DNA from: a virus
Lineage: Duplodnaviria; Heunggongvirae; Uroviricota; Caudoviricetes
Length of the DNA stretch: 64,000 nucleotides
Reading direction: 5' to 3' (one strand)
Virus record (IMG/VR): IMGVR_UViG_3300028025_000093
Coordinates: 88,650-152,649 of that record
Below, piece after piece: positions 12,034 through 56,690 of this stretch; the stretch's first letter is position 1, and every line of letters begins with the position of its first letter. Below the pieces are notes generated by a model. That model did not search any database. It was not told the origin of the DNA and was given only the letters and a program-made list of their open reading frames with translations. Both the position numbers and the translations under genes were made by a program.

Positions 12034-12036
12034 CGA

Positions 12037-12043
12037 CTAAATA
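12037..12043 (+). promoter_or_regulatory. CTAAATA late-promoter-like motif
   Basis: The heptamer lies 20 nt upstream of the tail tube ATG and is followed by an AAGGAGA RBS. Confidence 0.4.
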
Positions 12044-12063
12044 AAGAGAACAAGGAGAATTAA

Positions 12064-12657
12064 ATGGCAAATATTAGCGATTTCAAAGCGCAAATGATTG
12101 GTGGCGGTGCTCGTCCCAATCAATTCCGTGTTGAATTAGTATTCCCTAGCTACGTACCACTAGGTATCGTAGCTGGTCAGCGTGCTCAGTTCTTGTGTAA
12201 AGCTGCACAGTTACCTGCTTCCACTATTGAGAACATTCAAGTTCTTTATAAAGGTCGTCAGATTAACTTTGCAGGTGAACGTAACTTTACACCTTGGACT
12301 GTAACAATCTATAACGATACAACTTTTAACATCCGCAACGCCATGGAACAATGGCAAGCTGGTATTCAAAGTTACTCAAGCACAGACGGTAGAACTAATC
12401 CACGTGATTATCAAGTAGATTTACAAGTTCATCAATTAGATCGTAGTGGTGCAATCATCAAGAGCTATAAGTTCGTTGATGCTTTCCCTACTAACATTGG
12501 TCCGATTGCGTTGGATTTTGACCAACAAAATCAGATCGAACAGTTTGACGTAGAATTCCAGTTTAATTACTTTACTTCTAACGCAACTGAGGGTGGTGGA
12601 ATCAATGTTAATGTTTCAGTTGATACACCAATCGGTAGCTTCCCACTACCTATCTAA
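12064..12657 (+). CDS. tail tube protein (gp19-like)
   Basis: Directly follows the sheath gene, as in T4-like phages. Size and beta-rich composition are consistent with a tube protein. Confidence 0.7.
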   Translation: MANISDFKAQMIGGGARPNQFRVELVFPSYVPLGIVAGQRAQFLCKAAQLPASTIENIQVLYKGRQINFAGERNFTPWTVTIYNDTTFNIRNAMEQWQAGIQSYSSTDGRTNPRDYQVDLQVHQLDRSGAIIKSYKFVDAFPTNIGPIALDFDQQNQIEQFDVEFQFNYFTSNATEGGGINVNVSVDTPIGSFPLPI

Positions 12658-38281: not shown

Positions 38282-38518
38282 ATGAAAAACAAACAAATCG
38301 TTGCAACAATTTACAATCGCCCAGTTCAAACTAAATCTGAGGCACGTGCTGAATCTGAGAAAGCACTGAAGGCATTCTTGAAGTCTGGTGGAGTAATTCA
38401 AGAAAGTAAATCCCGTCGTAATCCAAAGAGCAAGATGTCTGGGAAAAGTTCCCGTGGGTTTATCTGTGGTACTTCTGGTTTCGCTACTGGTTTTCCTAGA
38501 CGTACGATGGGTGCTTGA
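38282..38518 (+). CDS. hypothetical small basic protein
   Basis: ATG preceded by the exact 21-mer TTGAAAAGGAAATATATTATG that is also found at 30259. Confidence 0.35.
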   Translation: MKNKQIVATIYNRPVQTKSEARAESEKALKAFLKSGGVIQESKSRRNPKSKMSGKSSRGFICGTSGFATGFPRRTMGA

Positions 38519-38553
38519 CTTTAATTCGCAAATAAAGTATAATTGTTTATATA

Positions 38554-38901
38554 ATGGAGAATGTGATGAACTACGAAAAAATGAGTACTGATGAATTGGG
38601 TGGGTTGTTTTCTGATTACTACAAAGACACGCACGGCAGTCGTCCTCGTTTCGTAGACTTCAACGATCGCGAAGAACTTATTCGTCAGTTAGATCTCCTG
38701 AACAATTACCACGACAAAATGCAGGAAACTTTTGAAAGTCGTGAGCAACTCCGTGAAGATGGTTGGATCATCCACGAAACTGATCCTGAGATGCAGAAGA
38801 TGGCTTACTTCCTCGCCAAAGAGCGTGACAAGTGGAAGTTGGATAACTGGGGTGAGGAATTCAACGAAGCACGTTACTATGAGCCAAAGGTGGCAGCATG
38901 A
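38554..38901 (+). CDS. hypothetical protein
   Basis: ORF; no recognisable motif. Confidence 0.35.
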   Translation: MENVMNYEKMSTDELGGLFSDYYKDTHGSRPRFVDFNDREELIRQLDLLNNYHDKMQETFESREQLREDGWIIHETDPEMQKMAYFLAKERDKWKLDNWGEEFNEARYYEPKVAA

Positions 38902-42533: not shown

Positions 42534-43099
42534 TGTTTGTATTTGACGTAGAAACTCTTGGAGTAGAATCAACTTGTGTTGTTCTTTCTGCAGCTATGGT
42601 GCACTTTGATCCAGAGTTGCGACCAACATATCAAGACTTGCTAGATAATGCTTGCTTTGTAAAGTTTGATGTCAAAGAACAGATGAGTGTTGGTCGAAGT
42701 GCATCAAAGTCTACTCTGGAGTGGTGGAAATCTCAGCATGAGTACGTTCGCAAAGTATCTCTAGATCCATCTCGTGAAGACATGACTGTGGAAAATGGAA
42801 TGCAAAAGTTCTATGACTATATGGCTAAGTTTCCAAATGCAAAAAAACAAACAATGTGGGCACGTGGTTCTCTTGATCAAATGGCAATAGATTCTCTGGC
42901 AGTTAAATTTGACTTAGAAGAACTTACAGGGTATAATGTATGGAGGGATGTTAGAACAGCAGTCGATATCCTATACGGAACTACTAATGGATACGTTGAA
43001 GTAGTGCACCCACTATTTTCTAGACACGAAGTTATTAAGCATCATCCCGTACACGACTGTGCCCTTGACGCAATGCAATTAATGTATGGAAAACAATAA
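42533..43099 (+). CDS. DEDDh 3'-5' exonuclease (DexA-like), separate from and immediately upstream of the DNA polymerase
   Basis: Exo I 'FDVETLG' and Exo III 'HPVHDCALDAMQL'. TAATG start overlap. Confidence 0.65.
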   Translation: MFVFDVETLGVESTCVVLSAAMVHFDPELRPTYQDLLDNACFVKFDVKEQMSVGRSASKSTLEWWKSQHEYVRKVSLDPSREDMTVENGMQKFYDYMAKFPNAKKQTMWARGSLDQMAIDSLAVKFDLEELTGYNVWRDVRTAVDILYGTTNGYVEVVHPLFSRHEVIKHHPVHDCALDAMQLMYGKQ

Positions 43100-45588
43100 T
43101 GATTTTTTATTCGCACGTATTCCCATTCGGCAACAAAATGTGTGTCCGTGGGTACGAGAATGGTAAACCCTTTCAACGCAAGATTGACTTTTATCCAACT
43201 CTGTATGTAAACGCAAAAACTCCAAACACTGAATGGAGTACTCTCACAGGACAAGCTGTTGAAGAAATCAAACCTGGAACAGTAAAAGAAACACGAGAGT
43301 TTGTTAAGAACTATGAAGATGTCAGTGGCTTTGACATCTATGGTAACACCAACTACGTTTGTCAATATCTTAGCGACACTTATGAAAGTGATATTCGTTG
43401 GGACATGGAACAGATCAAAGTGTTTACCATCGACATTGAGACGGCAACAGAAAATGGATTCCCAGATATTAAATCTGCCAATGAAGAGATCCTATTAATT
43501 ACCATCAAAGATCTGCAGTCCAAGCGTATTATTACGTTTGGATCACGTGCATTCGTTCATGGTCGCGATGACGTAATCTACATTCACTGTAAAGATGAAC
43601 TTCACTTACTCAAAGAGTTTATGATTTGGTGGCAGCAAAACTATCCAGATGTTTTGACTGGTTGGAATATTAACTTCTTTGACGTGCCGTATTTGATCAA
43701 GCGTGTTTCTCGTGAACTTGGCGAAACGATCGCCAATAAGTTTTCACCATGGGGTTATATCAATGAGCGTAAGATCTTTGTTAAAGGTAACGAAGAAATC
43801 ACATACGATATCCATGGTGTATCTCAGCTAGACTATCTTGACTTGTATAAAAAGTTTACGTATCAAAAGCAAGAATCGTATCGTCTAGATTATATTGCAG
43901 GTGAAGAACTTGGTGATGCCAAGAAAGAAAATCCAGGTGATACCTTCAAAGACTTTTATACCAATCACTGGCAAGAATTTGTTGAGTATAATATTCACGA
44001 CGTAGAGTTGGTTGATAAACTTGAAGACAAGATGCGATTGATTGAGTTATGCCTAACTATGGCATACAACGCAAAGATTAACTATGAAGATGTATTTTCT
44101 CAAGTGCGTATGTGGGATGCCATTATCTACAATCACTTGCGTAAGAGAAAAATTGCGATTCCAACAAAGACTGGTTCAAGTAAAAATGAACAGTTTGAGG
44201 GTGCGTATGTAAAAGATGTTTTGGTTGGTGCTCACAAATGGGTAGCTTCCTTTGACTTGAACTCACTATACCCGCATTTGATTATGCAGTATAATATCTC
44301 GCCAGAAACTCTTACATCAGAAAAGATCAGCGTAACTGTTGATAAATTGCTCAACAAAGAAGTTGATACATCATACGCCAAACGTAGAGATCTGGCTCTA
44401 ACTGCCAATGGTTGGACTTATCGCAGAGACATCAAAGGGTTTATGCCTGAGTTGATGGAAAAGATGTATGCGGATCGTTCAAAGTTTAAAAAGCAGATGT
44501 TGAAGATTGAACAAGAATATCAAAACGACAAAACGCAAAAACACTTGTTAAAAGATATTTCTCGTTTGAATAATCTGCAGATGGCTATGAAGATTGCCCT
44601 AAACTCTGCTTATGGTGCCATGGGTAATCAGTACTTCCGATACTTTGATATTCGTATGGCTGAGGGTATTACTACCAGTGGTCAACTATCAATTCGTTGG
44701 ATGGCGAACAAGTTGAATGCATTCTTGAATAAAACTCTCAAGACTGAAGGTAAAGACTTTGTTATTGCAATTGACACTGACTCAATCTATCTTACACTTG
44801 AGCACTTGGTCGAGAAAGTCTGCGAAGGTAAAGATACTGCGGCAAAGATAAAGTTTATGGACAAGATCTGTGAAGATGTTTTCCAACCATTCATTGATCA
44901 AGGTTATCAAGAACTAGCCGAGTATATGAATGCACATAGTCAAAAGATGATTATGAAGCGTGAGGTTCTGGCTGACAAAGGTATCTGGACTGCCAAGAAA
45001 CGATATATCCTTAACGTGCATAACTCTGAGGGTGTTCAATACGCAAAGCCCAAGCTAAAGGTAATGGGTCTTGAGATGGTTAAGTCAAGTACTCCTGCAG
45101 CAATTCGTGATAAGCTACGAGAATCTATTGATGTAATTCTTAAAGGTAATGAAGCTGACTTGCACGCATACATTGAAACATTCCGTGCTGAGTTTAACCA
45201 AATGCCAGTTGAAGCCATTGCATTCCCTCGTGGTGTTAATGGTTTGCGTCAGTATTCTGGTTCTCCGATCTATTCAAAGGGCACACCGATTCACGTGCGT
45301 GGTTCTTTGCTGTATAATCACTACGTTAAAAAGTTTGGACTAGATAGAAAGTACCAGCTAATTAAAGAAGGTGACAAGATTAGGTTTATCTACGTCAAGA
45401 AACCAAATCCATTTAATGAGGATGTCATTGCATTCCCGCAATCTATTCCTAAAGAGTTTGGACTTGAAGAGTTTATTGATTATGAACTTCAATTTAAAAA
45501 GACTTTCCTTGACGCAATGCAAACTGTAATTGAACCACTTGGTTGGAAAGTTGAACATCAATCATCATTGGAAGACTTCTTTGGATAA
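43099..45588 (+). CDS. family B DNA polymerase gp43 (with its own N-terminal 3'-5' exonuclease domain)
   Basis: Exo I 'FTIDIETAT', pol motif A 'DLNSLYPH' and motif C 'IAIDTDSIY'. 829 aa. Confidence 0.9.
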   Translation: MIFYSHVFPFGNKMCVRGYENGKPFQRKIDFYPTLYVNAKTPNTEWSTLTGQAVEEIKPGTVKETREFVKNYEDVSGFDIYGNTNYVCQYLSDTYESDIRWDMEQIKVFTIDIETATENGFPDIKSANEEILLITIKDLQSKRIITFGSRAFVHGRDDVIYIHCKDELHLLKEFMIWWQQNYPDVLTGWNINFFDVPYLIKRVSRELGETIANKFSPWGYINERKIFVKGNEEITYDIHGVSQLDYLDLYKKFTYQKQESYRLDYIAGEELGDAKKENPGDTFKDFYTNHWQEFVEYNIHDVELVDKLEDKMRLIELCLTMAYNAKINYEDVFSQVRMWDAIIYNHLRKRKIAIPTKTGSSKNEQFEGAYVKDVLVGAHKWVASFDLNSLYPHLIMQYNISPETLTSEKISVTVDKLLNKEVDTSYAKRRDLALTANGWTYRRDIKGFMPELMEKMYADRSKFKKQMLKIEQEYQNDKTQKHLLKDISRLNNLQMAMKIALNSAYGAMGNQYFRYFDIRMAEGITTSGQLSIRWMANKLNAFLNKTLKTEGKDFVIAIDTDSIYLTLEHLVEKVCEGKDTAAKIKFMDKICEDVFQPFIDQGYQELAEYMNAHSQKMIMKREVLADKGIWTAKKRYILNVHNSEGVQYAKPKLKVMGLEMVKSSTPAAIRDKLRESIDVILKGNEADLHAYIETFRAEFNQMPVEAIAFPRGVNGLRQYSGSPIYSKGTPIHVRGSLLYNHYVKKFGLDRKYQLIKEGDKIRFIYVKKPNPFNEDVIAFPQSIPKEFGLEEFIDYELQFKKTFLDAMQTVIEPLGWKVEHQSSLEDFFG

Positions 45589-46192: not shown

Positions 46193-47263
46193 ATGAGCAT
46201 TCTAGATAAAATTAAAAAGAACAGTACGATTAAAGAATCTGCTATTCTATCACAATCAAAGTTCTTTCAAAAGAAAGATATGATTCCTACTTCAGTCCCA
46301 ATGATCAATGTGGCTCTTTCTGGTCGTCTTGATGGTGGTCTAACTCCTGGACTGACAATGTGGGCTGGTCCAAGTAAACACTTTAAGACAGCATTCTCTT
46401 TGTTAATGGCAAAAGCATATATGGAAAAGTATGAAGATGCTGTCTTGCTATTTTATGATTCAGAGTTTGGTACTCCTCAGTCTTACTTTGATTCATTTGG
46501 TATTGATACTGAGCGTGTTATTCATACTCCAATCACTGACGTTGAGCAATTGAAGTTTGACATTATGAATCAGCTTGGTGGTATTGAACGTGGTGATCAC
46601 GTAATTATCGTTGTAGATTCTATTGGTAATCTAGCTTCGAAGAAAGAAGTTGATGATGCACTTGATCAAAAGTCTGTTGGTGATATGACTCGTGCAAAAC
46701 AAATGAAGTCGTTGTGGCGTATGGTTACTCCCCATCTAAACCTTAAAGACATTCCTTGTGTGGTTGTGAACCATACTTATATGGAAATTGGTTTATATCC
46801 AAAAGCAATCGTTGGTGGTGGTACTGGTTCTTACTACTCTGCTGACAATATTTTTATTCTTGGTCGTCAGCAAGAAAAAGAAGGAACTGAGATTGTTGGT
46901 TACAATTTTATTATTAACGTAGAGAAGTCAAGATATGTGCGAGAAAAATCTAAGATCCCTGTTAGCGTATCTTTCGATGGTGGTATTAGCCGTTGGTCTG
47001 GCTTACTCGATGTTGCTCTTGAATCTGGACATGTCATCAAACCTAGCAATGGTTGGTATCAAAAGGTAGATAAAGAAACTGGTGAGATGGATGATAAAAA
47101 GTATCGCATCAAAGAAACTGATACTAAAGAGTTTTGGATGCCAGTTCTAAAGCAGAAATCTTTTATTGACTTTGTCAAAGGTAAGTATACCGTTGCATCT
47201 ACTGATATCTTAAAAGATGAAGACATCGATGCAGAACTTGCATTAATTGATGATGAAGAATAA
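46193..47263 (+). CDS. uvsX: RecA-like recombinase UvsX
   Basis: Collinear with T4 UvsX. RecA-fold Walker A 'GPSKHFKT'. Confidence 0.85.
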   Translation: MSILDKIKKNSTIKESAILSQSKFFQKKDMIPTSVPMINVALSGRLDGGLTPGLTMWAGPSKHFKTAFSLLMAKAYMEKYEDAVLLFYDSEFGTPQSYFDSFGIDTERVIHTPITDVEQLKFDIMNQLGGIERGDHVIIVVDSIGNLASKKEVDDALDQKSVGDMTRAKQMKSLWRMVTPHLNLKDIPCVVVNHTYMEIGLYPKAIVGGGTGSYYSADNIFILGRQQEKEGTEIVGYNFIINVEKSRYVREKSKIPVSVSFDGGISRWSGLLDVALESGHVIKPSNGWYQKVDKETGEMDDKKYRIKETDTKEFWMPVLKQKSFIDFVKGKYTVASTDILKDEDIDAELALIDDEE

Positions 47264-47582
47264 ACCTTACGTTGTCGTTGAAAACAAGCAAGGGTTTGAT
47301 GCGATAAAGTTGACCGAAAATCCATTTGAGGGTATAATTTATACTTATGGTAGAGTTTCCTTTGATGAAGATGACGCAACTGGGTACATCAAGCTGAAGT
47401 TTGATTACGAGATTTTAGATTATGCGGATAAGGTAATTACTAATAAACAACCATTTGAAAAATACATTGGTGATATATTACAAGAACTTATTCACGAAGG
47501 TATTGAAAATAACAATTTAACATACGCAGGTGGTATTGATGAGAATAGAACAGGCGATCCTATCGAACCTGATTCACAATGA
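47247..47582 (+). CDS. hypothetical protein
   Basis: ORF between uvsX and the gene 41 homologue. Confidence 0.35.
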   Translation: MMMKNKPYVVVENKQGFDAIKLTENPFEGIIYTYGRVSFDEDDATGYIKLKFDYEILDYADKVITNKQPFEKYIGDILQELIHEGIENNNLTYAGGIDENRTGDPIEPDSQ

Positions 47583-48936
47583 AGAATATTGCCGTAAGGT
47601 AGTTCCTCATTTAAAGAAAGAGTATTTCTCCGATAGAAAAGAAGCAGCAATCGTTATGATTCTGCTTAATTTCTTTGAGCAATACAATAAGCCAGCAAGT
47701 CCTGAAGTTGTTCAGATTGAATTGTCTAATCTTAACGGATTCACGGATAAAGAGATTCCTGAGATGCAGGAATACGCCAAGACTTTACAAGCTGATGCTG
47801 CTACCAATCAAGATTGGTTGATTGAAAATAGTGAGAAGTTTTGTAAAGATCGTGCTGTGTATAATGCCATTCTGGATTCAATTAAGATTATTGAAGGTAG
47901 AGATAAGGTACATACTCAAGATGCCATCCCAACAATTCTTTCTGAAGCACTTGGTGTGTGTTTTGATAATCACGTTGGTCATGATTACCTACAAGATGCG
48001 CAATCTCGATTTGACTTTTATCATAGGGTTGAAGAAAAGGTTGCCTTTGACCTAGAGATGTTTAACAAGATTACCAAAGGTGGTTTGTCAAAGAAAACTC
48101 TAAACATTGCGTTGGCTGGTACTGGTGTTGGTAAGTCGTTGTTTATGTGTCACGTTGCTGCTGGTGTTCTTATGCAAGGTAAGAATGTTCTATACATTAC
48201 TATGGAAATGGCTGAAGAACGTATCGCTGAACGTATTGACGCAAACTTGTTGAACCTTACTATGGATGAGTTAAAGGTAGTTGACAAAGATATCTTTGAC
48301 TCACGTCTAGCAAAGATTGCCAATAAAACCAAAGGTACGTTGATTGTAAAAGAATATCCAACTGCAAGTGCTCACGCTGGTCACTTCCGTGGCTTGCTTG
48401 AAGAACTTAAATTAAAGCGTGAGTTTGCCCCAGATATTATTATGATTGACTATCTTAATATTTGCGCATCTTCTAGAATGAAGCAAGGTGCAAATGTAAA
48501 CTCTTATACATATGTAAAGAGTATTGCTGAAGAGTTACGTGGTCTTGCCGTTGAGTATAATGTACCCATTCTTAGTGCAACTCAAACTACTCGTTCTGGA
48601 TTTACTAATTCAGATCCAGGACTTGAAGATACGTCAGAGTCGTTTGGTTTGCCAGCCACAGCTGACTTGATGTTTGCTCTAGTGAGTAATGAAGAACTTG
48701 AGCAGTTGAATCAGATTATTGTAAAGCAGTTAAAGAATCGTTACAATGATCCAGGTTTTTATAAACGATTTGTTATTGGTATTGATCGTAGTAAAATGAA
48801 ACTGTATGACGTTGAGATCTCTGCACAAAGCGGATTATCTGATGCAGGTACTAAAGATGATAAGCCTATGTTCGATAAAAGTGAATTTGGTAAACGTATA
48901 CATAATGAAGATAACTTTAGTGGGTTTAAGTTTTAA
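47530..48936 (+). CDS. replicative DnaB-like helicase gp41
   Basis: N-terminal 'ILSNLIHNEEYCRKVVPHLKKEYF' matches T4 gp41 'ILSHLIFDQAYFSKVWPYMDSEYF'. Walker A 'GTGVGKS'. The start could instead be the ATG at 47539. Confidence 0.85.
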   Translation: MVLMRIEQAILSNLIHNEEYCRKVVPHLKKEYFSDRKEAAIVMILLNFFEQYNKPASPEVVQIELSNLNGFTDKEIPEMQEYAKTLQADAATNQDWLIENSEKFCKDRAVYNAILDSIKIIEGRDKVHTQDAIPTILSEALGVCFDNHVGHDYLQDAQSRFDFYHRVEEKVAFDLEMFNKITKGGLSKKTLNIALAGTGVGKSLFMCHVAAGVLMQGKNVLYITMEMAEERIAERIDANLLNLTMDELKVVDKDIFDSRLAKIANKTKGTLIVKEYPTASAHAGHFRGLLEELKLKREFAPDIIMIDYLNICASSRMKQGANVNSYTYVKSIAEELRGLAVEYNVPILSATQTTRSGFTNSDPGLEDTSESFGLPATADLMFALVSNEELEQLNQIIVKQLKNRYNDPGFYKRFVIGIDRSKMKLYDVEISAQSGLSDAGTKDDKPMFDKSEFGKRIHNEDNFSGFKF

Positions 48937-48945
48937 GGAGCCGAA

Positions 48946-50253
48946 ATGGTAAAAATTGTTGTAGCAGAAAACAAGTATGATGCCAAACATATGTTGGGAC
49001 AATTTCCAACTGAAGCAGATTACGATCTTTTAATTGAAGAAGATATGGACGTTTATATGCCTGAAGTTCCAGGACATCCTGAACTGACATATACCGAAGA
49101 ACGTATTGTTCTGAAGTTTCGCAAGAACTACTTTACAAAAGAACAACAAGAGCAAGCATACGTTGGTTTGAGAGAAGCTGCGGTTGAATCTCAGAATCGT
49201 GGTATTGCTGCTGGTCCACGTCAAGGTTCATTGGGTAATCGCCAGTGGGTAACAGATTACGAATACGATATGCTTGACGTATTCCTAAAGCCAACTGAAA
49301 ACTTGTTTGGTGACGATCCTGTTGAGGTTGTTCGTAACAAACATAAGAACATTACTGCCAGTGCTTCTAATCGTGCACGTGTTTGGTCAGTAGATGGTGT
49401 CAAGAAAGAGAACTTTGTATTTGACACTTGGGTTGATACTATTCGTAAGATGACACCTGATGCTGCCAAACAAGAAGCAGAACGTGTAGCTGAAGATCTT
49501 ATCTGTGCCACAACTTACGCAAACTCAGTTCACTCTGGCATTGCTGGTTGGTTCGATCGTTATCCACGCATTCCGTATGGTCGTGCCACAAGTTATACTC
49601 GTGATAATTTTGACAAGTTTAAGATGGCGTTTCCTTTCTTACAAACTCTATCGCAAGGTTTCAAAGAATTGTTACCTTGGAGATACGGCAATCAAATGGC
49701 TGCAGCCAATAAACTAGATCCAAACTATTTGGTTCCAGGTACACCATTTACCACAATTACCGTAAACAAAACTTTCCGTACTGCTTGCCATTATGATGCT
49801 GGTGATTTAACCACAGGTTTGTCTAATCTACTAACCTTGTCAAATACTGGTAACTATTCTGGTTGTTATCTGGTTGCACCTGAGTATCGTGTGGCAGTTA
49901 ATGTACGTCCAGGAGATTTGTTGTTGATTAACAATCACGAAGTTATGCACGGCAATACTGAAATTAAAGTGCACGATGAAATCTCAGAACGCATTAGCTT
50001 GGTTTGCTACTTCCGTGAAAAGATGCTTGAGCTAGGTTCCAAAGAATACGAAGATACCAGATATCAATTCGTTGAAGATCGTCGCAAGAATAAAGAACAT
50101 CCTGAACACAGAGCATTGTGGAATGGTGTATCTCCAGGTATGTGGGAGTCTGACGAGTGGTACGATTACCTACGTCATAAACTTGGTGAAGACCAACTGG
50201 TGAAGTATCACCCAGAATCACAAAAGGCTAACTCACTAGAAAGTTTCTTTTAA
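48946..50253 (+). CDS. 2OG-Fe(II) dioxygenase (DSBH fold); candidate DNA-base (thymine) hydroxylase
   Basis: 'ACHYDAGD' (His-282, Asp-284), a distal 'NHEVMHGNTE' (His-331/335) and 'ERISLVCY' (RxS). It is the first gene of a cluster with a kinase, a transferase and an amidoligase. Confidence 0.5.
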   Translation: MVKIVVAENKYDAKHMLGQFPTEADYDLLIEEDMDVYMPEVPGHPELTYTEERIVLKFRKNYFTKEQQEQAYVGLREAAVESQNRGIAAGPRQGSLGNRQWVTDYEYDMLDVFLKPTENLFGDDPVEVVRNKHKNITASASNRARVWSVDGVKKENFVFDTWVDTIRKMTPDAAKQEAERVAEDLICATTYANSVHSGIAGWFDRYPRIPYGRATSYTRDNFDKFKMAFPFLQTLSQGFKELLPWRYGNQMAAANKLDPNYLVPGTPFTTITVNKTFRTACHYDAGDLTTGLSNLLTLSNTGNYSGCYLVAPEYRVAVNVRPGDLLLINNHEVMHGNTEIKVHDEISERISLVCYFREKMLELGSKEYEDTRYQFVEDRRKNKEHPEHRALWNGVSPGMWESDEWYDYLRHKLGEDQLVKYHPESQKANSLESFF

Positions 50254-50930
50254 TGTGCGCAGTCATTGGAGCCATCCTGCAGAAACCAACTCTGCAGGAT
50301 TTTACTATGTTGCATCGTGTATTCCTAGAGTCCAAGATTCGAGGTATGCACGCCACTGGAATATCCTATGTCAAGAATGACCGAGTTGTTACTGAGAAGC
50401 ACCCTGTTCCTGCCAATGAGTTTCCTTTTAATTTTGCAGAGTATGTTAATGAAGATGGGAATCTCTACCTTATTGGTCACTGTCGTTACAGCACTAGCGA
50501 TCTTGAGTTTAATCAGCCAATTGGTAATGATAAACACTCAATAGTTCACAATGGAGTTATCACTCAAGAACTACCAGAACGCTGGAAAGAATTATATAAT
50601 TATGAGTGCACGACCAAGAATGATAGTGAGTTAGTCTTACACTCTGATTCGCCACTTGAAGAGTTTCCTGATATGTCTATGGGTGTTTGTGAATTAACCA
50701 GTGACAAGAAACTACTTGCTTATCGTAATGGCAAACGTCCATTATACTTGACTAGTATTTCAAATGGGTGTATAATTACTTCTACTGCTGATATTATTAA
50801 ACGTGCAGAAGTGGAAGGGTTTCCTATTAACCTTTTATCAAATCATTACACTACATTTGATAGTGACCTAACTATGATTGTTGAAAAGGTTAATATTGAT
50901 GCTGTTGATTACCAACTAATAGGTGACTGA
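50253..50930 (+). CDS. class-II (Ntn) glutamine amidotransferase domain protein
   Basis: N-terminal catalytic 'MCAVIG', plus 'IRGMHATG', 'GHCRYSTSD' and 'VHNGVITQ', which match the PurF/GlmS/AsnB GATase-II signatures. Confidence 0.75.
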   Translation: MCAVIGAILQKPTLQDFTMLHRVFLESKIRGMHATGISYVKNDRVVTEKHPVPANEFPFNFAEYVNEDGNLYLIGHCRYSTSDLEFNQPIGNDKHSIVHNGVITQELPERWKELYNYECTTKNDSELVLHSDSPLEEFPDMSMGVCELTSDKKLLAYRNGKRPLYLTSISNGCIITSTADIIKRAEVEGFPINLLSNHYTTFDSDLTMIVEKVNIDAVDYQLIGD

Positions 50931-51805
50931 TGAATTATCCAAAAGAAAAATTTACATACGGTATGGAAATAGAGTGGGGTGATGTTCCTCGCTCTTTTTC
51001 AATTCCAGAACATCTTGGTACTTGGGAATACTCCGAGCGAGATATTATTAACCTACGAGATCCATACAAGAACGTATGTGCAGATCCGTTGGGTGAAGAT
51101 CCGCCATTTGGTGGAGAGATTAATACCAAGCCAACTCGTACTTGGGCTGGTCAAGTAGAACGATACTTTGAACTACAGAAACTGTTTGAAGATGCTGGTC
51201 ATCCACCAACAGTAGGTGTTACTGCACATACACACATACACTGTCGCATTCCTGGATTGCGTGATGATATCGATGCACTAAAACGATTGACCAAATACAT
51301 CAAAGAAAACCAAGCAACAACAGTTGATCGTGTTTATGGTTTCTATGACCACAATCAAATGAAAGGTGCCAAAGGTGCCAAGATGTATCTAAAGTTTGAT
51401 GGTGGTCGTACAATGCCAGATTATATGAGCGATAATATTATCAATCTAGCCACTGACTTCAACTCTTTCATTAAGATGCACGCTGCAGGTAAAGATGGTG
51501 TTTCAATGGGTCGCCCATTCCGATATGCCATTAATATGTACGCACTCAAACACATTGATACTGTGGAGTTTCGTTTATTCCGTGGTACACTGGATAAAGT
51601 AGAATTGGAATCTTGCTTCCGTTTCGTTGAAGACTTCCTTGATGCTGCGCTAAATGATGGACCAAGTGTTGACGATCTGATCAATACCAATGGTTATAAG
51701 TTTCCACCGATGCAGTGGGATCTTGCTCAATTCATTGGATGGGAAAAGACAAAGCACCCAGAAGATCGTGGTGAGAAAGTGAGAACTCTTGTTGAGGTTG
51801 AGTAA
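50930..51805 (+). CDS. glutamine-synthetase-like amidoligase family protein
   Basis: 'FTYGMEIEW' N-terminal region and overall size typical of phage and bacterial amidoligases. Assigned from my recollection of family signatures. Confidence 0.5.
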   Translation: MNYPKEKFTYGMEIEWGDVPRSFSIPEHLGTWEYSERDIINLRDPYKNVCADPLGEDPPFGGEINTKPTRTWAGQVERYFELQKLFEDAGHPPTVGVTAHTHIHCRIPGLRDDIDALKRLTKYIKENQATTVDRVYGFYDHNQMKGAKGAKMYLKFDGGRTMPDYMSDNIINLATDFNSFIKMHAAGKDGVSMGRPFRYAINMYALKHIDTVEFRLFRGTLDKVELESCFRFVEDFLDAALNDGPSVDDLINTNGYKFPPMQWDLAQFIGWEKTKHPEDRGEKVRTLVEVE

Positions 51806-51887
51806 ATGTTCAAGATGTGATTTTGTAAATAGTATATCTACCGATAAGGGAGATAACTTTGCAAAGACATTTATTGCCAAAGCAGAT

Positions 51888-52340
51888 ATGCAAGACCAAT
51901 GGGAGTATTGCATAGGTGCTTGGGATGGTAGCGAATTAACAGCTGCCATTATAACTACCATATCCAAGAATAAACCCCACGTGGCTAACCTACAACTCTT
52001 GCATACCTTTGTAAAACACCGAGGAAAGGGAGCTGCCAGGATCCTCTGCGAGGACTCTTTAAAGCGTGCTAGAGCGTCTGGAGCGACTTACTTTAGGGTA
52101 TCCTCAGAGAAGTCTGCCGTAGGCTTCTACGAGCGTCTAGGGTTCCGATTCTGGGGTTCCCAAAAGAGTGGTTGCCAGCTATCCATCTTTAGGATAGGGG
52201 GAGATACCTTCCTACAGGGCGACTACGACCTTTCTGACACCACCATCAATAAAGCGGTCAACCGAAAGGGTAAGGGAGGTTGTACGACCCTCTACGACCT
52301 TGCAAAGAGCCAAAATGGGGTCAAAATAGACGATTTTTGA
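51888..52340 (+). CDS. GNAT-family N-acetyltransferase with anomalous GC-rich composition
   Basis: 'FVKHRGKGAARIL' acetyl-CoA-binding motif followed by 'GFYERLGF'. About 50% GC with rare AGG/CGA/GGG codons, against about 37% GC for the rest of the window. The ORF track uses TTG at 51789; the first ATG is at 51888. Confidence 0.55.
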   Translation: MQDQWEYCIGAWDGSELTAAIITTISKNKPHVANLQLLHTFVKHRGKGAARILCEDSLKRARASGATYFRVSSEKSAVGFYERLGFRFWGSQKSGCQLSIFRIGGDTFLQGDYDLSDTTINKAVNRKGKGGCTTLYDLAKSQNGVKIDDF

Positions 52341-52354
52341 GTCAAATTTAGCTT

Positions 52355-52382
52355 TACTTTAATTGCAAAATAAGGTATAATA
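52355..52382 (+). promoter_or_regulatory. sigma70-like promoter (TTTACT-N16-TATAAT) driving the HNH gene
   Basis: 'AGCTTTACTTTAATTgcaaaataaggTATAAT' is a member of the conserved promoter family. Confidence 0.5.
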
Positions 52383-52408
52383 AAGGTTGGATAATTGAGG
52401 AATTTATT

Positions 52409-52945
52409 ATGAGAAATTTAAACCTTGAAGAACTAATAGAATTTAATTTTAATTCTGACTTGGTGAACCAAGAAGAATCAAGACGTGAGTACATATCTGA
52501 AAAAAATCAAGAAAATCATAAGACTTGGGGTGATACTAAAGAGCGTTGGATAAAGCGACATCTTTATAAAGGGACACAAAGTAATGCTAGAGAAAAGAAA
52601 GTAGCCAATACTTTATCTCCAGTAGCCTTAAGTAAAATGTGGGATTTACAAAAAGGTAAATGTGCTATTAGTGGAGTGGAGTTAGTTTGGGGTGAAACTG
52701 ATAACATCCGAAGAGCATCAGTTGATCAAATATATCCATCAGGTGGCTATACATTAGAAAATACATGGCTAGTTTGTTCAGGAATAAATTTTTTGAAAAA
52801 TAAATTTTCACTGACAGATCTTCTTGAGATATACCCACAAGCAATAAAATCTTCTTTATTTAACGAGGTATATGAAGCTACTTTAAATGATAAAGTACCT
52901 ACACACAATAGTCCTATTATAAACGACCTTCAATTACTCACTTAA
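52409..52945 (+). CDS. putative HNH-family homing endonuclease
   Basis: 'GKCAISGVEL…SVDQIYPSGGYTLENTWLVCSGINFLKNK' resembles the HNH_3-type core. AT-rich, with its own promoter, inserted inside a functional gene cluster. Confidence 0.4.
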   Translation: MRNLNLEELIEFNFNSDLVNQEESRREYISEKNQENHKTWGDTKERWIKRHLYKGTQSNAREKKVANTLSPVALSKMWDLQKGKCAISGVELVWGETDNIRRASVDQIYPSGGYTLENTWLVCSGINFLKNKFSLTDLLEIYPQAIKSSLFNEVYEATLNDKVPTHNSPIINDLQLLT

Positions 52946-53964
52946 TGGACTATAGACTATCACAAAATCGTAGAGAAGCATTCATACGCTGGTATGCGTG
53001 GTCGTTGAAGTATGACGACTGCGACCCAGCAGTATGGGCGACTAACTATATAAACGATCGTTACGAGCATAATGACGAGCAGAAACTTTGGTTGTGCTGG
53101 CTATACGGTAATACATACTATCTTCCAACTGCTTGGGTATTGATGAACGAGTTTCCCGACTATGAACTGGCAACTGTTGATCGTATGACTCAGTGGAATA
53201 CTACCAACTACAAGCGACTGCGTTATCAAACTGACACAAAGTGGAACAAGGGACATTTGCCAACCATGTTCGAATCTTATCAAAAGTATATTGGCAATCA
53301 AACTCAACGAGAAAAGATAGAGTCATTATATGGAAACAATGAGAAGGCAAACTTTGATAACTTGTGGGAGAGCGTTAAGTCTAGCTTGCATAAGTTTGGT
53401 CGTTACAGTACTTGGTTTTATCTTCAGCATCTTAAGCATACCGCTGGTGTTCGGATCGATCCTACTTCTCTCATGCTGGACGATTATGATGGCTCTCGCT
53501 CTCATCGTAATGGATTACTTTATGCCCTCGGACAAGAAGACAGTGTGGATAGAAAACTCACTGCAATGGAGTATGCAAATCTTGAGTCACAAGCCCAAGA
53601 GATTCTTGCAGAGACGAAAGCAAGATTTCCAGAACTCATATCGTCAATAGATTATTTCACTATGGAAACGTGTCTGTGTTCTTATAAGAAAATCTTTAGA
53701 GAACACCACGGAAGATACCTTGGGTATTACCTAGATCGTCAAGCTGAAGAGATTATCAAAGTTGAAGGCGATGGATGGTATGGAATTGATTGGGATGTGC
53801 TTTGGCAATCCCGAGAAGAAACTATTGATTTACGTCTAGATCACAAACGTGGTATAGACAAAGAAAAGTTTAAGTATTTTATCAATACAGGTAAACTTGA
53901 TAATCTCGAGTGGATGTTTGATGATGAACAGCGACAACTTATTGGACTAGAGGAATTTTTATGA
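52945..53964 (+). CDS. hypothetical protein; candidate aGPT-pyrophosphorylase-like transferase of the base-modification cluster
   Basis: Assigned from gene context only: it is translationally coupled (ATGA) to the downstream small P-loop kinase and sits in a cluster with a dioxygenase, a GATase and an amidoligase. I recognise no sequence motif with confidence. Confidence 0.3.
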   Translation: MDYRLSQNRREAFIRWYAWSLKYDDCDPAVWATNYINDRYEHNDEQKLWLCWLYGNTYYLPTAWVLMNEFPDYELATVDRMTQWNTTNYKRLRYQTDTKWNKGHLPTMFESYQKYIGNQTQREKIESLYGNNEKANFDNLWESVKSSLHKFGRYSTWFYLQHLKHTAGVRIDPTSLMLDDYDGSRSHRNGLLYALGQEDSVDRKLTAMEYANLESQAQEILAETKARFPELISSIDYFTMETCLCSYKKIFREHHGRYLGYYLDRQAEEIIKVEGDGWYGIDWDVLWQSREETIDLRLDHKRGIDKEKFKYFINTGKLDNLEWMFDDEQRQLIGLEEFL

Positions 53965-54500
53965 GAAAATTGATTGCAGTTGGTGGTTCTCCAGGAACAG
54001 GTAAAACTACCTTATTCCGTAAGTTTATGGAAGGTAAAACTTGGGAGCGAGTTGAGCCCAAGAAAATGTTACCTGCACTCTACTGTGCAGAATTGGATTT
54101 GTATATCCTAGGTAAGTACGAAGATGGCGAAACATTCGCTGGCACAGATCGTTTAAGTATGGCTGTTCAACCAGTGGCTCAGGAATTCGTCAAGGAAACT
54201 ACTTCAAACATCTTATTTGAAGGCGACCGAATCTTTAACCAGTCTTTCCTAGAGTTTGCCATGGGATTGCCCGATACTGATCTACAAGTGATTTTCCTAA
54301 AGGTTCCCAAGGAAATGCTTGAGCAAAGGTATAAGGATCGTGGATCCGACCAATCGGAGATATTCCTAAAGGGTCGCAATACTAAATATAATAACCTATT
54401 GTCTAATTTTGAGTTGATGCCATATATTACTGAGTTTGTGAATACTAACTTAGAGGAGCAGGGGAAAGTTCTAACCTTTTTAGAAGGTCAATTAGGATAA
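53961..54500 (+). CDS. small P-loop kinase; candidate 5-hydroxymethyluracil DNA kinase (5-HMUDK-like)
   Basis: Walker A 'GGSPGTGKTT', about 180 aa. The assignment as a DNA-base kinase is from context. Confidence 0.45.
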   Translation: MRKLIAVGGSPGTGKTTLFRKFMEGKTWERVEPKKMLPALYCAELDLYILGKYEDGETFAGTDRLSMAVQPVAQEFVKETTSNILFEGDRIFNQSFLEFAMGLPDTDLQVIFLKVPKEMLEQRYKDRGSDQSEIFLKGRNTKYNNLLSNFELMPYITEFVNTNLEEQGKVLTFLEGQLG

Positions 54501-54502
54501 GG

Positions 54503-55228
54503 ATGGAACTTTCTAGGGATATGAATTACCTAGAAACCGCAGACTTCAATTGGATGGAAATGCTCAATTTCTATGAGCAGCCATTTAGAGCTAAACTCAT
54601 TCCATCAAAAGTGTGGCGAGATCTCGACAAGTATAAAAATGATAGCGTAGGTCTAGCCAACTATACTAAAAAGTGGCGTACCAAAATAGAGTTTAGAAAA
54701 GCACCATCTAAGGCAAAGATCTGGAAAACCTACACATCAATTGGTGGTGAATATTCCCCAGATGAACGTCAGTGTACCCTACAAATCTACACGCTAGAAT
54801 TTGATAAATTCCCTTTCACTAAAGTATCTTGGGATAGATTTAAGTATCGCTTTATTCAAACTCTGATGCACGAGTTGATTCACTTTATGCAGTACGATCG
54901 TCGTGGTGATGAGTGGAGCAATTACGTACTACCACATAAGAAAGTTGGTCAAGCCAAGAAAGACGCTGAGCGTAAATACCTTTCTGAGTTTGATGAGATA
55001 CAAGCATACGCTCATTGTGTTTATCTGGACTTTAAAATGTTCCGTCCAAGATTAGAAGTAGAAACACTAATGAACCGAGCAGGACAATATACAGATTCAA
55101 AGACTCTACATTACTTTCTAAAGACATTCAACTACGACTACAAGAATAACGCTGCAATTCCAAAGATAATGCAGCAGATTATTAAGTGGGACAACAAGTA
55201 TCAACGATACGTCAATAAGCCTAAATAG
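54503..55228 (+). CDS. HExxH motif protein (putative zincin-like metallohydrolase)
   Basis: 'TLMHELIHFMQYD' followed by 'SEFDEIQAY'. Confidence 0.35.
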   Translation: MELSRDMNYLETADFNWMEMLNFYEQPFRAKLIPSKVWRDLDKYKNDSVGLANYTKKWRTKIEFRKAPSKAKIWKTYTSIGGEYSPDERQCTLQIYTLEFDKFPFTKVSWDRFKYRFIQTLMHELIHFMQYDRRGDEWSNYVLPHKKVGQAKKDAERKYLSEFDEIQAYAHCVYLDFKMFRPRLEVETLMNRAGQYTDSKTLHYFLKTFNYDYKNNAAIPKIMQQIIKWDNKYQRYVNKPK

Positions 55229-55246: not shown

Positions 55247-56623
55247 ATGGCAACAGATTACTCAAAACTAGCAGCATCCGCCAAAAAGATGGTAGATTAT
55301 CTTTCCACCAAAGGTGTTAAGGTAACTTTAAAATCTTCAAGGTATCAAGCTCAAATTAAAGCAGTTGAGATTGCATTCTCAGGCACACTTGACGCATTCT
55401 TAAAAAGTGTTGGTATAACTGCAACAGTTACTGATCTTAGTGTCACTGAAGAAAAAGCAATTTCTGGTAAGTACAAAGCCAAGCTAATGACTCTTACCAA
55501 AGTACTCGGCACTATTGCCAAGGGCGAAACCTTTTACATTGTAAATACCTATACTGAAAAGGGTACGCTAAAAACAAAAGATTTAGCACCAGAAAAGTTT
55601 AATCTCACTACTAGCAAATATACAACGCTAGAATCTCTAGACAAAGCTGTGTTGAATGGTATCAAAGAAAACGCTACCCTAGCAGCAGACATTAAAGTTG
55701 TTCTAACAGAATTATATAAAACAGTTAGCACAAACAAAAACCCCAAAGATATTATTCCAATGACTGCGCCAGCAAAGAAATCATTTGCTGGAGTTAAGCC
55801 ACAAGACAAACAAGCTATTGGTAAAGACTTTGGTGAAGTTCTTTCTATGCGTTGGTACTTGACTCAACCATTTGCTTCTACTTGGCAACAAGCATTCTTT
55901 TCAGATATTAGTAATGAAGCATTGGTAGACTTTGTTGTTATGAAGAAATCTGGCAAAGAAACTATTCGTACTGATATATCAGCAAAGTTTGAAGAAGGTG
56001 CTGCACCATCCATTGGTGCCATTGTTGATAATATTGATAAAGTTTACAAAGCTCCAAATAAAGAAGAAGCTGTTGTAATTAACGTACTAAAAGCATTGGC
56101 TGGCAAAAACGATAATACATCAACTAAGATTTTAGCTGCCATGAAATCTCTTAATCTGCCAGCGTATACCACATTAAAGAAAACTATTGGTGCTAAAGGC
56201 AACTTTACTATTCAAGATATTTCTGCGCATATTCAACAGATTGCCAAAGTAGGTAAAACTGATAAAGCAAGAATTAAATTATTTAAATCTACATATGAAG
56301 AGTTTTATAATGTGCTTGGTAAAAACGCAAGTGATGATTCTGTTAATATTGTAATGACACCAACTACATATAAAAAGTATTATTCATTGGTAATGGCACC
56401 TATGGGTTATGCGTTAGTTGATTATATGAATAAACAACCACAATATCAAGAAGTGTTAAATAAGATTAGTCAGCATATGAAAACTGAACAAGTATATCTA
56501 TACTTCTCTGGTGATAATCTAGAGTTTAAGAAAAAGTTATTTTCAAAAGCTGAGTTTAAATTTGCTTACGGAGCCAACGCCAAAGACTCTGATAATACAG
56601 GCATCAAGTTCTTTATGAAATAA
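55247..56623 (+). CDS. hypothetical Lys-rich protein (458 aa)
   Basis: Long ORF; no recognisable motif. Confidence 0.4.
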   Translation: MATDYSKLAASAKKMVDYLSTKGVKVTLKSSRYQAQIKAVEIAFSGTLDAFLKSVGITATVTDLSVTEEKAISGKYKAKLMTLTKVLGTIAKGETFYIVNTYTEKGTLKTKDLAPEKFNLTTSKYTTLESLDKAVLNGIKENATLAADIKVVLTELYKTVSTNKNPKDIIPMTAPAKKSFAGVKPQDKQAIGKDFGEVLSMRWYLTQPFASTWQQAFFSDISNEALVDFVVMKKSGKETIRTDISAKFEEGAAPSIGAIVDNIDKVYKAPNKEEAVVINVLKALAGKNDNTSTKILAAMKSLNLPAYTTLKKTIGAKGNFTIQDISAHIQQIAKVGKTDKARIKLFKSTYEEFYNVLGKNASDDSVNIVMTPTTYKKYYSLVMAPMGYALVDYMNKQPQYQEVLNKISQHMKTEQVYLYFSGDNLEFKKKLFSKAEFKFAYGANAKDSDNTGIKFFMK

Positions 56624-56655: not shown

Positions 56656-56684
56656 TTGACTTTAATTGCAAGATAGGGTATAAT
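56656..56684 (+). promoter_or_regulatory. consensus sigma70 promoter (TTGACT-N17-TATAAT)
   Basis: 'CGCTTGACTTTAATTgcaagatagggTATAAT' is the best match to the consensus within the promoter family. Confidence 0.65.
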
Positions 56685-56690
56685 AAAGGT

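Follow-up and report, generated by a model that had tools for sequence, protein, structure and literature searches.

The 64,000-nucleotide (nt) stretch of DNA analysed here (the window) covers positions 88,650 to 152,649 of the IMG/VR virus record IMGVR_UViG_3300028025_000093 (Caudoviricetes). It belongs to a T4-like phage and carries a gene for a GNAT-fold N-acetyltransferase (GNAT), a promoter and a nuclease-like open reading frame (ORF) in the middle of a DNA-modification operon, all on the plus strand. The operon follows a helicase gene and consists of co-directional genes for a TET/JBP dioxygenase (48946-50253; PF12851, E = 7e-26), a class-II glutamine amidotransferase (GATase; 50253-50930), an amidoligase-like protein of 291 amino acids (aa) (50930-51805; a weak match to Pfam Amidoligase_2, E = 0.063), the GNAT protein of 183 aa (51789-52340; PF13673, E = 1.4e-11, and PF00583, E = 2.2e-8), the nuclease-like protein of 178 aa (52409-52945), an amino acid:DNA transferase (ADDT, alias aGPT-Pplase; 52945-53964; PF18724, E = 1.1e-22) and a P-loop nucleotide kinase (53961-54500; PF18751 Ploopntkinase3, E = 3.2e-8). 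The GNAT gene starts with TTG and overlaps the amidoligase stop codon by 17 nt, and the ADDT start overlaps the stop codon of the nuclease ORF (TAATG). Between the GNAT and nuclease ORFs lie a sigma-70-like promoter, TTTACT-N17-TATAAT (52353-52381), and a conserved leader (52382-52408) with the ribosome-binding site GAGGA (52397-52401). The same set of genes makes up clusters for post-replicative thymidine hypermodification, and virome clusters joining TET_JBP, kinase, aGPT-Pplase, amidoligase and GATase have been described as uncharacterised (PMC8989533; PMC13229309). A first-pass annotation, whose coordinates and ORFs were correct, read the GNAT gene, the promoter and an HNH-like endonuclease gene as one recent insertion, in which a homing endonuclease may have brought along a GC-rich cargo gene. 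Comparison with related phages indicates instead that the GNAT and nuclease genes have unrelated histories, the former appearing to be a long-standing member of the operon and the latter a putative mobile cassette.

Relatives were collected by two scans of IMG/VR, one with the ADDT and the other with the amidoligase as query, which gave 159 related loci (individual loci are cited by L numbers); the non-redundant set comprised 74 ADDT loci with enough upstream sequence. The GNAT gene stands directly after the amidoligase gene, with an overlap of a few codons, in 96 of the 99 amidoligase-bearing loci, and this adjacency is kept even in L168, a relative that is 50% identical. In the non-redundant set, the two genes co-occur in 46 loci and are both absent in the other 28, and neither occurs alone. 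Relatives with the amidoligase and ADDT genes adjoining each other and no GNAT gene between, which the first-pass annotation had proposed to look for, were not found among these loci. Alignments by blastn to relatives of ~75% identity run unbroken from the amidoligase gene through the GNAT gene into the promoter. Nei-Gojobori estimates against seven relatives with a GNAT at least 80% identical gave a proportion of synonymous differences (pS) of about 0.53-0.66 and a nonsynonymous divergence (dN) of ~0.11 for the GNAT gene, the same values as for the amidoligase and ADDT genes, with a dN/dS far below 1.

A bacterial origin of the GNAT gene was considered and rejected. When 185,579 species genomes of bacteria and archaea were scanned by pattern, only two GNAT relatives came up, both on contigs of metagenome-assembled genomes, and both contigs carry the same GATase/amidoligase/GNAT/ADDT cluster, so that these matches are binned phage DNA; no bacterial homologue outside the phage cluster was present in these genomes. 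The bacterial-host-like best hits that had been anticipated for a recently acquired gene thus did not appear. In a collection of 5.8 billion proteins, GNAT homologues form more than 513 clusters. Among the features of a foreign islet, the gene shows atypical composition, whereas it is neither absent from relatives nor discordant with its flanks in divergence. From these comparisons, the GNAT gene appears to be an old, conserved member of the pathway that is kept under purifying selection, and not a recent acquisition.

The compositional anomaly that had prompted the idea of recent acquisition is nevertheless genuine. The GC content of the GNAT ORF is 45.7%, and the value of about 50% given previously is reached only as a peak (52% in the 300-nt window 52000-52299); the ORF is still an outlier (z = +2.6) against 38.0% for the 64-kb window and an ORF mean of 38.0 ± 2.9%. 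Its GC content at third codon positions (GC3) is 47.3%, compared with 30.2 ± 6.1% for the ORFs of the window (z = +2.8). By an index resembling the codon adaptation index and calculated against all other ORFs, the gene scores 0.473 vs 0.697 ± 0.048 (z = -4.6), which makes it the most extreme codon-usage outlier among 63 ORFs; the sliding GC and codon analysis suggested by the first-pass annotation thus confirms the deviation. The enrichment of the four rare codons named there is also borne out, AGG making up 36% of Arg codons in the GNAT gene vs 2% elsewhere, CGA 27% vs 10%, GGG 18% vs 4% and CTC 21% vs 5%. However, the GC3 of the GNAT gene is 0.39-0.50 in every copy at least 80% identical, vs 0.22-0.34 in the TET, GATase and amidoligase genes, and the relatives sharing a GC-rich, rare-codon GNAT gene include L103, L108, L122, L160 and L161. 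Since the high GC3 has been kept although synonymous sites are nearly saturated, the composition is an old property maintained in one clade and not the mark of a recent import. Relatives carrying the gene at the same place with native composition had been named as evidence against a recent insertion; the place is indeed the same, and the odd composition, far from native, is shared by the closest clade. In a sister clade of GNAT (62-69% identical), GC3 equals that of the flanks. A donor lineage accounting for the rare-codon usage was sought and none was found. An embedded RNA structure was rejected as the cause of the GC-richness, because the folding z-scores of -2.7 to -3.7 fall within a window background of -1.27 ± 1.41 that reaches -4.8; an Rfam search of 50000-55000 gave no match, and the ORF list holds no ORF overlapping 52000-52340. 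Public gene calls of L169, a contig identical to the window, omit the GNAT ORF (1397-2001), likely owing to its TTG start and atypical codons, and the family may be under-annotated in public gene calls.

The limits of the variable segment can be placed by comparison with L084 (IMGVR_UViG_3300008119_000039), the closest relative in IMG/VR. Its identity to the window is 93% along the 8.4 kb that end at position 52412 and 92% along the 7 kb that begin at position 52944, and between the points matching these two positions L084 carries an unrelated zinc-ribbon ORF of 99 aa. The boundaries coincide with the start and stop codons of the nuclease ORF and enclose this ORF only, which argues against the GNAT gene as endonuclease cargo. 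Another locus, L172, has a copy of the nuclease gene that is 88% identical; its 175 nt upstream to the ATG of the cassette are base-for-base identical to L084, and the 5′ end of its ADDT gene is nearly identical to that of L084. Together, L084 and L172 show that one ORF has been exchanged precisely for another between near-identical genomes. From the ADDT ATG onward, the relatives are colinear again. Target-site polymorphism near the ADDT start amounts to only two synonymous differences common to nuclease-plus vs nuclease-minus loci, too few to interpret.

The occupants of this slot between the GNAT and ADDT genes were counted in 50 distinct intervals from IMG/VR. A ParB-like gene fills 30 of them and 13 are empty (11-47 nt); a zinc-ribbon ORF is found in four, in one case together with a 2-oxoglutarate (2OG) oxygenase, and single intervals hold a canonical HNH gene, a distant PacI-like relative of the window protein and an unassigned ORF of 221 aa. 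The ParB-like protein (413-513 aa; for example, L099:9458-10768 and L114:9468-10766) joins a GIY-YIG-like N-terminal part (phrog_314, 1.7e-8) to an N-domain of ParB/Noc type, with Noc (E = 2.4e-5) as its best match in the PDB. It probably corresponds to the ParB activator reported in 2026, which some phage T-dioxygenases need on double-stranded DNA (PMC13229309). A profile made from the 30 slot proteins detected no ParB-like gene in the 64-kb window or in loci L160-L165. The zinc-ribbon ORFs (99-112 aa; L084:9473-9756, L110, L059 and L117) have two Cys pairs (CKxC...CCxC) and resemble the zinc ribbon at the N-terminus of HNH/Endo VII proteins from phages (PHROG E ~1e-3), but they have no nuclease domain. 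The nuclease gene of the window has no copy in the 159 IMG/VR loci.

The promoter in front of the slot consists of TTTACT (52353-52358) and TATAAT (52376-52381) separated by 17 nt, one more than the 16 nt first noted; its presence is otherwise upheld, and it is both non-random and conserved. A generic consensus scan of the region yields 30 promoter sites vs 29.9 expected from shuffled sequence, whereas a 28-nt copy of this particular site with two mismatches occurs at 56662-56689, with 0 expected by chance. This second copy (56656-56689) lies upstream of an ORF at ~56691 whose product starts with MKLKS, and similar promoters are found at 38515 and 46136; all are intergenic and on the plus strand. 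In relatives, the motif GCTTTACTTT(A/T)ATT...GTATAAT directly after the GNAT stop codon is invariant, and it is kept whatever follows, be it a ParB-like gene, a canonical HNH gene, a zinc-ribbon ORF or, where the slot is empty, the ADDT gene itself. L084, L172, L108, L121 and L114 have the same or almost the same leader although their downstream ORFs are unrelated, and wherever the slot is occupied, unrelated ORFs share the leader and the ribosome-binding site. The promoter, formerly counted as part of the insert, therefore belongs with what is constant in the alignments, as a conserved native element of the locus. In the empty-slot relatives L105, L116, L053 and L091, the ADDT ATG comes 6 nt after the conserved -10 TATAAT, so that the transcript would be leaderless or ADDT would rely on upstream read-through. 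The ORF behind the promoter at 38515 (38554-38901, 115 aa; region 38515-38901) has the top GC3 of the window (0.517, z = +3.5), and the promoter in front of it, TTGACTTTAATTCGCAAATAAAGTATAAT, is of the same family.

The GNAT protein passes the Pfam cut-offs of three acetyltransferase models, PF13673 (Acetyltransf_10; 44.9 bits, cut-off 23.6), PF00583 (34.8, cut-off 20.7) and PF13508 (28.5, cut-off 27). Its AlphaFold2 (AF2) model has a pLDDT of 92.9 and a pTM of 0.87, and a Foldseek search with this model gave 694 PDB matches at E <= 1e-3; among the matches listed, the top ones are all GNAT-type N-acetyltransferases (best E = 4e-8). Motif A, which binds the pyrophosphate of acetyl-CoA (R/Q-x-x-G-x-G/A), reads R78-G79-K80-G81-A82-A83, with R78 and G81 invariant in 22 family members, and the family has its own C-terminal extension of 45 residues with an invariant KGKGGC motif. 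By analogy, the protein is best read as a tailoring N-acetyltransferase of thymidine hypermodification like gp48 of Pseudomonas phage PaMx11, which converts 5-aminomethyl-deoxyuridine (dU) in DNA to 5-acetylaminomethyl-dU and is encoded in an AADT/kinase cluster (PMC8989533). That the GNAT might acetylate an amino group on the modified base had been offered as an alternative in the first-pass annotation and now appears to be the better-supported reading. In both phages, a GNAT-fold enzyme is encoded with an amino acid:DNA transferase and a 5-hydroxymethyl-dU (5-hmdU) DNA kinase in a thymidine hypermodification cluster. By hhalign, the two proteins match with a probability of 89.5% (E = 1.9e-6) over 65 columns of the cofactor-binding core, and by BLASTP they are 29% identical over 58 residues only; this limited coverage rules out orthology. 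A relation to Mom of phage Mu was also dismissed (hhalign probability 0.8%). The PaMx11 cluster gp46-gp49 encodes, in this order, AADT, a flavin adenine dinucleotide (FAD)-lyase, the acetyltransferase and the kinase (PMC8989533). In the window, by contrast, the partners are a GATase and an amidoligase in place of the flavin lyase, the GNAT has the 45-residue extension with KGKGGC, and 5-hydroxymethyluracil (5-hmU) would be made on DNA by the TET/JBP dioxygenase and not by a dUMP (deoxyuridine monophosphate) hydroxymethylase. The Pfam scan of the cluster ORFs showed no FAD oxidoreductase domain of the type found in the flavin-lyase partner of gp48. Given these different partners and the different route to 5-hmU, the substrate amine probably differs from that of gp48.

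The gene content of the operon, its conservation and the GNAT fold are observed, and the following chemistry is proposed from them by analogy. The TET/JBP dioxygenase would oxidise T in DNA to 5-hmU, the P-loop kinase would phosphorylate 5-hmU, and ADDT would exchange the phosphate for an amino acid. The GATase-amidoligase-GNAT module may then remodel the appended group, as the strict linkage of the GNAT to the amidoligase suggests for an amino acid installed by ADDT, and the GNAT might cap a free primary amine by using acetyl-CoA. As in the virome TET_JBP/5mYOX clusters, the window combines TET_JBP, GATase, amidoligase, AADT/ADDT and Ploopntkinase3 (PMC8989533; PMC13229309). Those clusters often contain ParB, and about half of the close relatives of the window encode the ParB/Noc-like slot protein; the window differs in having no ParB-like gene detected in 64 kb and a nuclease gene in the ParB position.

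As first described, the nuclease ORF is AT-rich (32.0% GC, 20% GC3), and in codon usage it does not depart from the rest of the phage (z = 0.0). It matches the PHROG endonuclease families 3322 and 1035 (~1e-13 each) as well as 3118, whereas none of the HNH models of Pfam/NCBIfam matches it, so that the label 'HNH-like' is apt in a distant sense only. Its best sequence match in the PDB is PacI (E = 2.5e-4, 24 bits), followed by the Cas9 HNH domain (E = 1.7e-3). Where HNH enzymes have D-H, all close homologues have S-V-D-Q-I, and where Endo VII and PacI have CxxC pairs, they have single Cys residues; D106-Q107 of the window protein aligns with the D-H of Cas9, which puts Gln107, invariant in the close family, at the position of the general-base His. 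Y114 aligns in profile alignments with the Tyr of the PacI 'EGY'. PacI is a His-Me finger protein without the His (group 20), in which a Tyr in the omega loop takes the role of the His (PMC5714182). A profile search of 1.84 billion cluster representatives found 6,986 relatives at E <= 1e-3, many of them with two tandem domains, and C85, D106, G113, Y114 and N127 are invariant in 24 diverse members; D106 and N127 correspond to the metal-ligand Asp/Asn of the beta-beta-alpha-metal core. Of the CxxC pairs of the Endo VII/PacI type, only C85 and C123 remain, the second positions being Ser88 and Ile126. In the 5.8-billion-protein collection, homologues of the nuclease form only 10 clusters. The ORF is intact and full-length in all homologues, with a dN/dS of 0.08-0.30. 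Judged from its sequence, the protein is predicted to be a PacI-type His-less His-Me finger with Y114 as the presumed nucleophile, and since the conserved residues match what a PacI-type active site needs and selection is purifying, it is considered a likely active nuclease. With PacI (PDB 3ldy/3m7k), it has in common the motif (S/V)D(R/Q)..(x)GY...N..L.C...N..K, the missing catalytic His and the Tyr in the omega loop. Unlike PacI, it has Gln where PacI has Arg, a single Cys in place of each zinc CxxC pair that PacI keeps, and a different N-terminal helical region; PacI is a restriction enzyme of bacteria, whereas the window protein is encoded by a phage in a cassette-like gene. Some 7,000 cluster representatives make up the superfamily with the His-less pattern 'D-R/Q ... 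GY ... N ... K' (P0137-P0280), in which PacI appears to be the only characterised member.

Homologues of the nuclease that are 61-88% identical sit in the same slot in L160, L161 and L172. In L162-L165, homologues in this range of identity lie just downstream of a different ADDT gene (29% identical), in a cluster without GATase, amidoligase and GNAT, and without a promoter in front. More distant relatives (37-46% identical) are located between the sliding-clamp and clamp-loader genes (homologues of gp45 and gp44) of other T4-like contigs, with no ADDT gene adjoining, and the gene moves without the GNAT gene in L162, L177 and L179. A gene of patchy occurrence that is inserted between conserved essential genes with ORF-precise limits behaves like that of a freestanding homing-type endonuclease; the insertion described in the first-pass annotation thus holds for the nuclease ORF alone, as a sporadic and ORF-precise cassette. 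The distribution and the boundaries are observed, and from them we infer nuclease activity and homing, that is, a selfish homing-type cassette. Such a cassette could be swapped ORF for ORF through recombination in the conserved flanks, or because its product cuts alleles that lack the nuclease gene. T4-like phages have freestanding homing endonuclease genes such as the Seg GIY-YIG and Mob HNH genes. Like these, the gene in the window is a small nuclease ORF placed between conserved genes and sporadic among near-identical genomes; unlike them, it has a His-less catalytic motif of the PacI type and not a canonical HNH motif, and it is expressed behind a promoter that is part of the host locus, not of the mobile unit.

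On balance, a long-standing tailoring GNAT next to a slot that holds a PacI-type selfish homing-type cassette is a likely account of the locus and explains it best. Several points weigh against it. The GNAT allele may have come by an ancient replacement from a GC-richer phage, given the composition of the sister clade. The AF2 model of the nuclease, built on a 10-sequence alignment, has a pLDDT of 47 and is unusable, so the beta-beta-alpha-metal fold depends on profiles with modest E-values; moreover, the family has neither the catalytic His nor the zinc Cys pairs that PacI retains, and it may not cleave DNA. All nuclease homologues that are at least 61% identical adjoin an ADDT gene, which could mean a functional link and not selfishness. 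The swap may have run in either direction, the divergence of the nuclease gene from its homologues in L160-L162 being close to that of the TET and kinase genes; with its native codon usage, the nuclease gene may therefore have been resident for long and then replaced in the L084 lineage.

These points lead to the competing explanations, of which the single recent insertion of GNAT gene, promoter and HNH gene is by far the least credible. It could draw on the GNAT gene being the strongest codon outlier of the window and adjoining a gene of sporadic distribution, but all 96 IMG/VR loci that carry the GNAT gene do so without the nuclease gene, which in turn moves without the GNAT gene, the indel against L084 spares everything other than the nuclease ORF, the promoter persists in empty-slot relatives, and the GNAT gene co-diverges with its flanks and has no bacterial donor-like homologue. 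As far as sequence comparison reaches, this model is refuted. It is unlikely, though well short of that, that the GNAT acylates something other than the modified base (a protein, a polyamine or a pathway precursor) or transfers an aminoacyl group and not acetyl, in the way of other DNA modifiers with a GNAT fold. The Foldseek matches are generic (Nalpha-acetyltransferases, serotonin/polyamine N-acetyltransferases and others; TM ~0.5-0.58), the likeness to gp48 is limited to the cofactor-binding core, the flavin-dependent lyase partner of gp48 has no counterpart among the cluster ORFs, and Mu Mom is reported to be a tRNA-dependent DNA modifier of GNAT fold. Against such roles stand the adjacency and co-occurrence with the amidoligase gene in 46 of 46 loci within a DNA-modification operon, the failure of hhalign to find similarity to Mom, and an acetyl-CoA motif that is intact and invariant. 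An N-acetyltransferase acting on the modified base therefore remains the preferred assignment by analogy.

For the nuclease-like protein, a role as a working part of the modification system is possible but less likely than a selfish cassette, and on the whole it is rather improbable. It might act like PacI and cleave the unmodified, T-containing DNA of host or competitors, while the hypermodified thymines of the phage itself block it, as a phage-borne 'restriction' partner; or it might be a DNA-distorting accessory that replaces the slot-encoded ParB-like activator and gives the modifying enzymes access to duplex DNA. Purifying selection on the family, the position of the closer homologues inside hypermodification clusters of two architectures, always adjoining ADDT, and the use of a promoter, leader and slot that serve a ParB-like gene in 30 of 50 relatives all fit such a role, as do the lack of a detectable ParB-like gene in the window and the need of some T-dioxygenases for this activator (PMC13229309). 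Yet the family is rare (10 homologue clusters, compared with more than 513 for GNAT), the 13 empty intervals indicate that no occupant is required, unrelated nucleases use the same slot, and the relatives between clamp and clamp-loader genes are away from any ADDT gene. Slightly more doubtful still is that the ORF encodes a catalytically dead, domesticated or decaying His-Me finger, now a DNA-binding protein or the remnant of a homing endonuclease. The Gln found where Cas9 has its catalytic His, the loss of one Cys from each zinc pair and the silence of the Pfam HNH models would agree with this, and His-Me groups in which His and Tyr are both missing are considered inactive (PMC5714182). However, the Tyr taking the place of His in PacI is invariant here, along with the metal-ligand Asp and Asn, across the superfamily of ~7,000 representatives, a dN/dS of 0.08-0.30 speaks against decay, and no homologue is truncated. 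An active nuclease in a selfish cassette is accordingly weighed above both alternatives, the activity itself being predicted from conserved residues.

The region is thus largely ordinary and holds no record of a recent gene capture. A strong compositional anomaly can sit in an old, vertically inherited gene, and the GNAT gene, old and odd in composition, is a warning that GC content and codon usage by themselves do not suffice to call DNA foreign. The comparison defines a GATase-amidoligase-GNAT module whose members always go together in TET/JBP-type thymidine hypermodification clusters, for which reason its product is likely to be a thymine derivative that is new, acetylated and probably also amidated. 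It also maps a recombination hot-spot behind a conserved promoter, where ParB activators and nuclease genes of several classes are traded between phages, and it singles out the PacI-like His-less His-Me finger proteins, a large superfamily in phages, as putative nucleases with site specificity.

Upstream of the operon lie three genes assigned by reading their translations, which we take to encode a DNA polymerase-like protein (43099-45588), a UvsX-like recombinase (46193-47263) and a DnaB/gp41-like helicase (47530-48936); the helicase assignment is backed by DnaB_C matches on homologues in L160-L162. Downstream, 3′ of the kinase gene, an ORF of 241 aa (54503-55228) has a faint match to SprT-like zinc proteases (E = 0.053) and one of 458 aa (55247-56623) has no Pfam/NCBIfam match; both travel with the cluster in relatives. 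Among INPHARED phages, neither a megablast search with the cluster nor a tblastn search with the GNAT gave a match, and the cluster layout of the window was not found in the cultured TET/JBP-bearing relatives DLP_6, Cr30 and C48C1. A second variable position lies between the ADDT and kinase genes, where some relatives have a radical-SAM gene (498 aa) and an ORF of 139 aa (L161:6553-8468; L103 ~10468-12470). About one-third of the related ADDT loci are without the amidoligase and a GNAT of the window type. One of the variants, L021 (6687-8002), encodes after the GATase a different GNAT-domain protein (213 aa), which on comparison is not a close relative of the window GNAT, plus an unassigned ORF of 242 aa. 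Another, L162 (2926-4985), has a protein of 341 aa without assignment and an ADDT that is 29% identical. These two variants suggest that the tailoring part of the cluster is exchanged as modules.

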